From a virus: a stretch of 59,488 nt of DNA. The stretch covers positions 1 through 59,488 of the IMG/VR virus record IMGVR_UViG_3300028398_000004; one strand, given 5' to 3'. The notes under the pieces are model-generated. The model did no database searches. It was not told the origin of the DNA and worked only from the letters and a program-made list of their open reading frames with translations. This document shows positions 19,828 through 20,316 of this stretch, one piece after another. Positions within the stretch are counted from its first letter, which is position 1; each line of letters opens with the position of its first letter. Position numbers and translations under genes: made by a program.

Positions 19828-20316
19828 ATGATTAAATATATATGTGTAAAAGAAGTATCTGCTAAACCTATGACTCGACAAGAATATAATGATTATCGAG
19901 GCTGGAAGCTTCCTTCAGATGAGAATGGGGATGATTGGGGTTATTTGAAGGATGATGGTCAAGGACATATTCAATGGGATCCTATAGAGATATTTAATAA
20001 ATATCATCAAGTTATTGATGGAATGACTTTTGGTCATGCGATTGAAGCAGCTAAACTAGGTAAGAAAATTGCTCGTAAAGGATGGAATGGCAAAAATATG
20101 TTTATTGTTTATATGGAGCCACTAAGCTTACCTCCATATAATACAAGTGGAACGCAGCGTAAAGTAAATGATCGAACGGCTAAATTTATTGGTAAAGATA
20201 AGCCACTGAATTGTCAGCCATATTTTGCAATGTATAATGCACAAGAAGAGTGGATTCTAGGATGGTCAGCAACACAAAGTGATATGCTGGCAAGAGATTG
20301 GATGATTGTAGAATAA
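19828..20316 (+). CDS. DUF2829 (Tad2-family) protein with an extra N-terminal domain
   Basis: The C-terminal half reads [29 protein letters not shown]...[17 protein letters not shown], which fits the DUF2829 signature. The second ATG (19828) has AAGGAG 8 nt upstream. The track start 19822 is only 2 nt from the RBS. Confidence 0.8.
   Translation: [162 protein letters not shown]

Follow-up and report, generated by a model that had tools for sequence, protein, structure and literature searches.

The window analysed here, IMGVR_UViG_3300028398_000004, is the complete genome of an uncultivated phage (59,488 bp, 33% GC, 127-bp direct terminal repeats). Directly downstream of the portal gene, it carries an intact gene for a two-module protein in which a C-terminal Tad2 (DUF2829) domain, related to the sponges that counter Thoeris defence, is joined to a small N-terminal module, hereafter the N-domain. 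On the plus strand, the genes for the terminase large subunit and the portal are followed by the Tad2-like gene and a small dead gene, and these by orf86, a homologue of GroES, scaffold-like genes and the gene for the major capsid protein (Table 1). The open reading frame (ORF) of the Tad2-like gene has two possible start codons, an ATG at 19822 that overlaps the portal stop codon and an ATG at 19828, from which the gene abuts that stop. Because a ribosome-binding site (RBS) is appropriately spaced from the second ATG and the database gene call for this gene (P0001) is likewise 162 amino acids (aa) long, we adopt positions 19828-20316 and the 162-residue numbering, unless the 164-residue numbering is specified. 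A megablast search with positions 17000-24500 of the window against 50,697 phage records gave no match; the phage belongs to an uncultivated lineage.

The assignment of the C-terminal part of the protein to the DUF2829 family, proposed in a previous sequence-only reading of this DNA, is borne out by profile, by sequence comparison with solved structures and by predicted fold. The Pfam profile PF11195 ("Tad2-like") matches with an E value of 6.8e-24 and a score of 84.6 bits, against a cut-off of 25 bits, over the full length of the profile (positions 1-73 of 73) and residues 68-163 in the 164-residue numbering, a match that was confirmed on the genome record. In a sequence search of the PDB, the domain matched six Tad2/AcrIIA7 proteins (seven distinct chain sequences) with E values from 3.5e-19 to 2.9e-08, among them SptTad2 (8wjd, 3.5e-19), HgmTad2/AcrIIA7 (8kbi, 9.4e-15), pdAcrIIA7 (9kzr, 3.6e-14), ModTad2 (9eib, 1.3e-12) and SPO1 Tad2. 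An AlphaFold2 model of the protein built on 44 homologues has a predicted local distance difference test score (pLDDT) of 91 and, in its C-terminal domain, shows the Tad2 fold, which starts with a helix and continues with an antiparallel sheet whose insertion carries a helix. This domain matches the known Tad2 structures in Foldseek with a probability of 1.0 (8wjd, 8kbi, 9eib, 8v3e, 8wje and 8sme; target-normalised template modelling (TM) scores of 0.70-0.90) and, in structure comparison with VIA, aligns to 8kbi with Z 13.2 (root-mean-square deviation (rmsd) 3.2, 95 residues) and to 9eib with Z 12.6 (rmsd 2.2, 86 residues). VIA also aligned the Tad2 domain (model residues 64-162) to chain S of 8qkh, from the neck of phage 812, with Z 6.1 over 66 residues; this resemblance possibly reflects just a common structural arrangement.

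The residues that line the pocket for glyco-cyclic ADP-ribose (gcADPR) in the characterised Tad2 proteins are conserved. In the Tad2 papers, the pocket of SPO1 Tad2 is formed by W25, N26, W73 and D79, with T78 and S76, and that of HgmTad2 by W21, N22, G23, M76, A78, V84, W87, L88, S90, T92 and D93. The HgmTad2 pocket aligns here to W86, N87, G88, M135, N137, I143, W146, S147, T149, S151 and D152, and W25, N26, W73 and D79 of SPO1 Tad2 also correspond to pocket residues conserved in the window protein, which has both the GWNG loop and the W...(S/T)...D segment. Two independent alignments of the family, with 44 and 38 members, respectively, show no variation at W86, N87, G88, W146, D152, D157 and W158.

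The extra N-terminal domain of about 65 residues noted in the earlier reading is a discrete unit that, folded alone, yields a model with a pLDDT of 94, four strands of at least 3 residues and two helices, and has no Pfam match even at E<=10. It is acidic, with an isoelectric point (pI) of 4.9; the pI of the Tad2 half is 9.3. Profile comparison identifies it as a homologue of the N-terminal domain of RyR Tad, the gp68 protein of Pectobacterium phage CB1 that was described in a June 2026 preprint (bioRxiv 10.64898/2026.06.04.730250). The N-domain profile aligns to residues 4-66 of gp68 in hhalign with a probability of 97% and an E value of 9.4e-11 and matches gp68 in hmmsearch with 37.2 bits, and members of the family are 41-43% identical to the N-terminal domain of gp68 (gp68_N); the pairwise similarity of the window copy to gp68 is not significant, so that the link runs via the family profile. 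According to the same preprint, gp68_N has a fold to which no function is assigned and is often encoded by a separate ORF, gp68_N (residues 1-86) alone has no activity against type I Thoeris, the domain forms a β1 strand-swapped dimer in the crystal, and gcADPR is bound by the C-terminal, ryanodine receptor-like domain. Dimerisation of this one characterised homologue is the sole known property that might be extended to the N-domain family.

Several other identities were considered for the N-domain. An origin as a degenerate duplication of Tad2, to which weak Foldseek matches to SPO1 Tad2 pointed (E 1.4, query-normalised TM 0.46), was ruled out by an hhalign probability of 0.3%, and the corresponding value for Acb5 (Acb5A) is 0.26%. 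Lockin, published as a hexameric beta cog that is absent from complete phage genomes, and TadIV-1, published as helical and restricted to T4-like phages, are set apart by these descriptions. No relative of the N-domain was found among solved structures by sequence (best E 0.39) or by Foldseek at E<=0.001 in a set that does not include the RyR Tad coordinates. The best VIA match, with Z 5.0, is to the Tudor-like domains of CarD, Mfd and UvrD and to DUF1653, which is best read as the generic resemblance of SH3/Tudor-like small barrels rather than as evidence of RNA polymerase binding. The ESM Atlas contains only unnamed small viral clusters that resemble the N-domain, with scores of 0.80-0.81.

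The N-domain is widespread and is mostly found fused to sponges. A profile of 39 N-domains (A2), searched against 1.84 billion representative proteins, matched 3486 representative clusters at E<=1e-3, of which 1754 reach E<=1e-10; the matched proteins are 94-354 aa long, and the N-domain is N-terminal in most of them and C-terminal in some. Among the best 150 representative N-domain proteins (alignment A5), Pfam identifies the fusion partner as Tad2 (PF11195) in 52, Sequestin (PF21825) in 35, Acb4 (PF13876) in 13, an Acb2/Tad1 hairpin in three, and WDGH, AP2, RyR and HNH_3 in one each, and five are essentially stand-alone N-domains. Sequestin is a sponge for 3' cyclic ADP-ribose (3'cADPR) that was itself discovered through its fusion to known sponges (Tal et al.), and Acb4 is a sponge acting against the cyclic oligonucleotide-based antiphage signalling system (CBASS). 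The supplementary tables of Tal et al. contain many N-domain-Sequestin and some N-domain-Lockin fusions, and the N-domain is not discussed in the text of that paper. Altogether, the N-domain is fused to sponges of at least six unrelated families, namely, Tad2, Sequestin, Acb4, Acb2-like, Lockin and RyR Tad. In about 40 of the 150 proteins, the C-terminal partner belongs to no Pfam family, and these partners are mostly dissimilar to one another; by the same fusion logic, they are candidates for additional sponge or anti-defence domains.

The two-domain form of the window protein is not unusual. Over its full length, with both modules covered, the protein matches phrog_872 (E 2.5e-41, residues 2-164 in the 164-residue numbering against profile positions 12-172 of 172) and is of the type of gp49 of Escherichia phage N4, an architecture that is not rare. 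At least 400 full-length homologues were detected in metagenomes, one of the closest being P0002, with 82% identity, and 90 phage records hold a region that spans 80% or more of the protein, among them records of Lederbergvirus and of Vibrio, Klebsiella, Pseudomonas and Acidovorax phages. In 65 IMG/VR loci that encode two-domain homologues, the neighbours vary and include head, replication and lysis genes; the commonest identifiable neighbour is Acb4 (8 loci), and Acb2 and Sequestin were each found once. The observation of a Tad2 domain combined with an N-domain is confirmed and lies far beyond chance. We regard the two-module gene as real, intact and a credible anti-defence gene of the anti-Thoeris sponge type, with signal binding and inhibition of defence predicted from its sequence.

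The location of the gene was compared with that in 27 relatives found via their portal proteins (67-77% identical), 22 of which extend over the end of the portal gene as well as the homologue of orf86 (Table 1). In these 22, the slot between the portal gene and orf86 is either empty or occupied by Tad2, alone or behind an N-domain, by Sequestin, by Acb4 or by other small genes, which identifies it as a hotspot for sponge genes. The gene was originally described as an accessory insert in the portal-to-scaffold order, next to a decayed gene and an orphan, the three together looking like a small anti-defence islet. The insert is indeed accessory, as attested by the seven relatives that lack it and by the different cargo of others, the decayed gene is real, and the term islet is apt given that this dead neighbour is a Sequestin, a member of another family of anti-Thoeris sponges. 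The alleged orphan, orf86, turned out to be a conserved backbone gene of the head module that is present in all 22 relatives (48-65% identity), directly before GroES.

Within this phage clade, Tad2 domains with and without an N-domain share 79-88% identity. The Tad2 domains of the window and of L004, the relative with the same architecture, are 82% identical, whereas their N-domains share only 45-52% identity. Given that the Tad2 domains are so similar and the N-domains are divergent or absent, there has been recent gain, loss or exchange of the N-domain, independent of the Tad2 partner.

The dead gene is broken by in-frame TAA stop codons at 20377 and 20472 and by one frameshift near 20400, and is accordingly classified as a pseudogene. 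Its two pieces match phrog_774 collinearly and, when read through with X at the breaks, match PF21825 over positions 2-61 of 61 (E 1.2e-9, 38.4 bits against a cut-off of 24.8); its GC content is 25%, against 33% for the genome. The insert of 725 bp that holds the dead Sequestin together with the preceding Tad2-like gene is bracketed by the two copies of a direct repeat. In the relatives with an empty site, a single junction joins the portal end to the orf86 start, and this, together with the bracketing repeat, suggests that the cassette was gained by recombination at this junction, with the repeat as its footprint. A partial third copy of the repeat lies before the dead Sequestin gene, at about 20321.

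Table 1. Features of the window (59,488 nt) around the two-module gene and contents of the portal-orf86 slot in 22 relatives. Positions are those of the window unless a relative (L number) is named.
Feature	Location	Strand	Remarks
Terminase large subunit gene	15963-17474	+	
Portal gene	17630-19825	+	
Direct repeat, left copy	19810-19834	+	25 nt, TAATAAGGAGCAATGAAAATGATTA; covers portal stop, RBS and first codons
RBS AAGGAG	19814-19819	+	8 nt upstream of ATG 19828; read from sequence
Two-module gene (N4 gp49 type)	19828-20316	+	stop codon included; from ORF list and sequence
N-domain, residues 1-65	19828-20022	+	small β-barrel-like; RyR-Tad N-domain family, in a short-loop variant
Tad2/DUF2829 sponge domain, residues 66-162	20023-20313	+	PF11195; long β2-β5 insertion
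Decayed Sequestin gene	20338-20537	+	PF21825 / crAss001_48; own good RBS and ATG
Direct repeat, right copy	20535-20559	+	24/25 identical; start of orf86
orf86	20547-20807	+	86 aa; likely start 20553; no family match
GroES/Cpn10 homologue	20895-21233	+	PF00166, E 7.7e-17
Slot empty	L088, L092, L095, L096, L098, L100, L107		7 of 22
Slot: 137-nt gap	L094, L109		only a 26-aa ORF (examined in L094)
Slot: stand-alone Tad2	L089, L090, L101		97 aa; PF11195 E 9.5e-25; 79-85% identical to the window Tad2 domain
Slot: N-domain + Tad2	L108, window		L108 is the same contig as L004
N-domain of L004	L004:6001-6225		
Slot: intact Sequestin	L093, L097, L099		E 2.4e-14 to 1.9e-13
Slot: Acb4	L085, L086, L087		E 1.4e-15
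Slot: fragment resembling the NrdD C-terminus	L091:6086-6421		111 aa, Cys-rich
Slot: only a small basic gene	L102, L104		54-62 aa; also in some other loci
Small basic protein genes	L089:6534-6701, L090:6537-6704, L093:5547-5723, L101:6103-6288, L102:2963-3151, L104:1859-2023		

Several other features of the region were observed. The small, very basic protein of 54-62 aa that is encoded in the slot of some relatives, alone or beside Tad2 or Sequestin, has FSFL after a lysine run and, C-terminally, the motif KKKxLxE; it has no Pfam match and may be an additional cargo gene of the hotspot. The Cys-rich protein in the slot of one relative matches NrdD, the anaerobic ribonucleotide reductase, at the C-terminal end of the latter only (positions 521-560 of 562 in PF13597, E 3e-9). 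The GroES/Cpn10 homologue, which lies shortly upstream of the genes for scaffold and capsid, is kept in all relatives examined. A scan of positions 17400-21400 detected no terminators, including between the portal and GroES genes, and promoter-like sites were less numerous than in shuffled sequence; there is no sign that the Tad2-like gene forms a transcription unit of its own. In a Pfam tally of 70 ORFs of the genome, which lists 25 of the 34 families found, no other sponge family appears.

From these observations, we consider it likely that the product of the window gene is a counter-defence protein of the N4 gp49 type, composed of two modules, a Tad2 sponge and a dimerising or assembly accessory, and that the gene is carried as cargo of a hotspot. 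By analogy with the solved Tad2 proteins, the Tad2 module would form a homotetramer, in which two protomers would contribute the GWNG loop (W86, N87 and G88) and the W146...D152 segment to form two recessed pockets. These pockets would sequester ADP-ribose-type signals made by proteins with Toll/interleukin-1 receptor (TIR) domains, that is, 3'cADPR and 2'cADPR and possibly His-ADPR or N7-cADPR, so that the effectors of Thoeris-type systems would never be switched on. The N-domain would most likely be an accessory to the sponge rather than a signal binder. If it behaves like its one characterised homologue, it would dimerise by strand swap and would not bind the type I Thoeris signal; speculatively, pairing of N-domains within or between tetramers could change the capacity or stability of the sponge. 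In pdAcrIIA7, an extra N-terminal domain is compatible with the Tad2 tetramer (PMC13133391). The gene would be co-transcribed with the late head genes, beside the dead Sequestin.

Several considerations weigh against this interpretation. The pockets, the tetramer and the inhibition of Thoeris are predicted from homologues; a literature search found no experimental test of N4 gp49 or of any two-domain Tad2, and the N-domain motif is absent among the 84 tested proteins of Hadary et al. (supplements including Table S2). The accessory role is extrapolated from one preprint on a distant homologue that considers type I Thoeris only. The N-domain of the window is also a reduced variant, with a deletion of a 10-residue loop and departures from near-invariant positions (G6C, Y47H, S49Q and S51D); because these changes are common to the closest homologues, they are traits of the lineage, not fresh damage. 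The range of ligands is uncertain because the second pocket of HgmTad2, which binds the cyclic dinucleotides cGG and cGAMP via R31, S47, F70 and N85, is not conserved, the corresponding positions being E97, a gap, C129 and L144. The insertion of about 40 residues in the Tad2 domain is strongly conserved within its subfamily but different from that of HgmTad2 and SptTad2, so that a second ligand site distinct from that of HgmTad2 is possible, as in MoTad2, for which a different second site, binding cUMP, has been reported. Finally, expression from a late operon is unusual for an anti-defence gene.

The most substantial alternative concerns the N-domain, which could be a second signal-binding domain, making the protein a sponge of dual specificity, similar to the fusions of Acb4 with Tad2 and with Sequestin that have been published. 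The "guilt by fusion" logic that uncovered Sequestin applies to this domain, given its partners in the best 150 proteins, the Lockin fusions in the supplement of Tal et al. and the confirmed RyR-Tad fusion. Its stand-alone copies, its conserved aromatic and basic residues (K8, R17, Y20, N21, R24, W26 and W50 in the alignments) and an evolutionary history distinct from that of the adjacent Tad2 domain also fit such a function. Nevertheless, we consider a dual-specificity sponge unlikely because gp68_N shows no activity against type I Thoeris and the crystallographic ligand of RyR Tad resides in the C-terminal domain, because the N-domain is acidic, whereas sponges typically have pockets with a positive charge, and because it combines a generic SH3/Tudor-like barrel fold with a lack of homology to Tad2 and Acb5A.

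The other alternatives concern the function of the whole protein. An activity like that of AcrIIA7, in which the basic groove of the Tad2-fold tetramer would bind tracrRNA, instead of or besides sponging, might be considered because AcrIIA7 is among the closest solved relatives, because the proposed RNA-binding residues of pdAcrIIA7 (K58, K66, K71, K93 and R101) correspond to K76, K84, K89, K112 and K119 here, all basic, and because some database records label two-domain homologues (H18 and H19) as "anti-CRISPR protein". In the AcrIIA7 study, however, Cas9 was inhibited only by forms without the N-terminal head domain, not by the full-length protein, and the window protein has an N-terminal domain; furthermore, inhibition of Cas9 by HgmTad2 was not reproduced in other work, and the alternative cargo of the slot consists of sponges directed against signalling systems. 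An anti-CRISPR function thus appears highly improbable. A morphogenetic or structural protein of the head or neck, or one packaged in the capsid, would be in keeping with the position immediately after the portal gene, with the location of other two-domain homologues among head genes (for example, in Pseudomonas phage phiAH14a, L039 and L043) and with the weak similarity of the Tad2 domain to the phage 812 neck protein. We hardly credit this explanation: close relatives that share the genes for portal, orf86, GroES and scaffold lack the gene or have unrelated small genes instead, members of the family also reside in early regions, in regions of replication genes or behind lysis cassettes, and the Z score of the neck match falls in the range of chance-level common arrangements stated for the tool.

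Tad2 sponges are well known and, in this respect, the window gene is one more member of the family. What seems to matter more is that one small, unnamed N-terminal domain recurs across many sponge families and thousands of clusters, the reason for which is a testable question, considering that the only published test of the domain family gave no activity. That the N-domain is an unrecognised anti-defence module in its own right seems doubtful. Among the possibilities, it might bind an immune signal beyond those tried on it, or it might couple sponge oligomers into higher-order assemblies, raising the capture capacity or hiding the sponges from host counter-surveillance. If it is such a module, this phage lineage provides a natural test set, in which near-identical Tad2 domains with and without the module occupy the same slot. 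The dead Sequestin beside an intact Tad2 suggests redundancy between two 3'cADPR sponges and, speculatively, existing coverage of 3'cADPR by Tad2 may be the reason why this copy decayed. The location of the hotspot in the late head operon suggests that the production of sponges may be timed with that of structural proteins, which often trigger TIR sensors; a match of this kind is likewise speculative.

Comparison with characterised systems places the window protein among known sponges and sets it apart from each of them. The solved Tad2 proteins SptTad2 (8wjd), HgmTad2/AcrIIA7 (8kbi and related entries), ModTad2 (9eib) and SPO1 Tad2 (8sme, 8smf and 8smg) share with it the family, the fold and the residues of the gcADPR pocket, and SptTad2 and HgmTad2 also share a long β2-β5 insertion, but these sponges are single-domain proteins of 88-104 aa, to which the window protein adds the N-domain, and the cGG/cGAMP pocket of HgmTad2 is not kept. 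Like the window protein, pdAcrIIA7 (9kzr) combines a Tad2 core with an extra N-terminal domain, but its head domain consists of two long helices (48 residues) and is unrelated to the beta-rich N-domain, the phmmer alignment covering the Tad2 core only. RyR Tad of Pectobacterium phage vB_PatP_CB1 has a homologous N-domain, likewise N-terminal to a gcADPR sponge domain, and this domain is also seen as a stand-alone ORF; the partner in RyR Tad, however, is a helical domain similar to Repeat12 of the ryanodine receptor and the protein is a dimer, whereas the partner in the window is Tad2 and a tetramer is expected.

The closest parallel is N4 gp49 (YP_950527.1, 160 aa), which shares the two-module architecture along its whole length, is 32% identical to the window protein in BLASTP (E 8e-25, residues 4-161 against 10-160), contains PF11195 in its C-terminal half and is encoded next to another sponge gene, gp48 (Acb4/PF13876). 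It differs in having a shorter, unrelated insertion inside the Tad2 domain and a long loop in the N-domain that the window copy lacks, and its gene belongs to an early/middle anti-signalling hotspot by the virion RNA polymerase gene rather than to a head operon. In this hotspot of the N4-like phages (Migulavirinae/Schitoviridae), as in the window and its relatives, Tad2, Acb4, Sequestin and small genes replace one another in a fixed slot. The slot of the N4-like phages lies between the primase and virion RNA polymerase genes, whereas that of the unrelated, uncultivated 59-kb lineage lies between the portal gene and a small conserved gene, in the late head operon.

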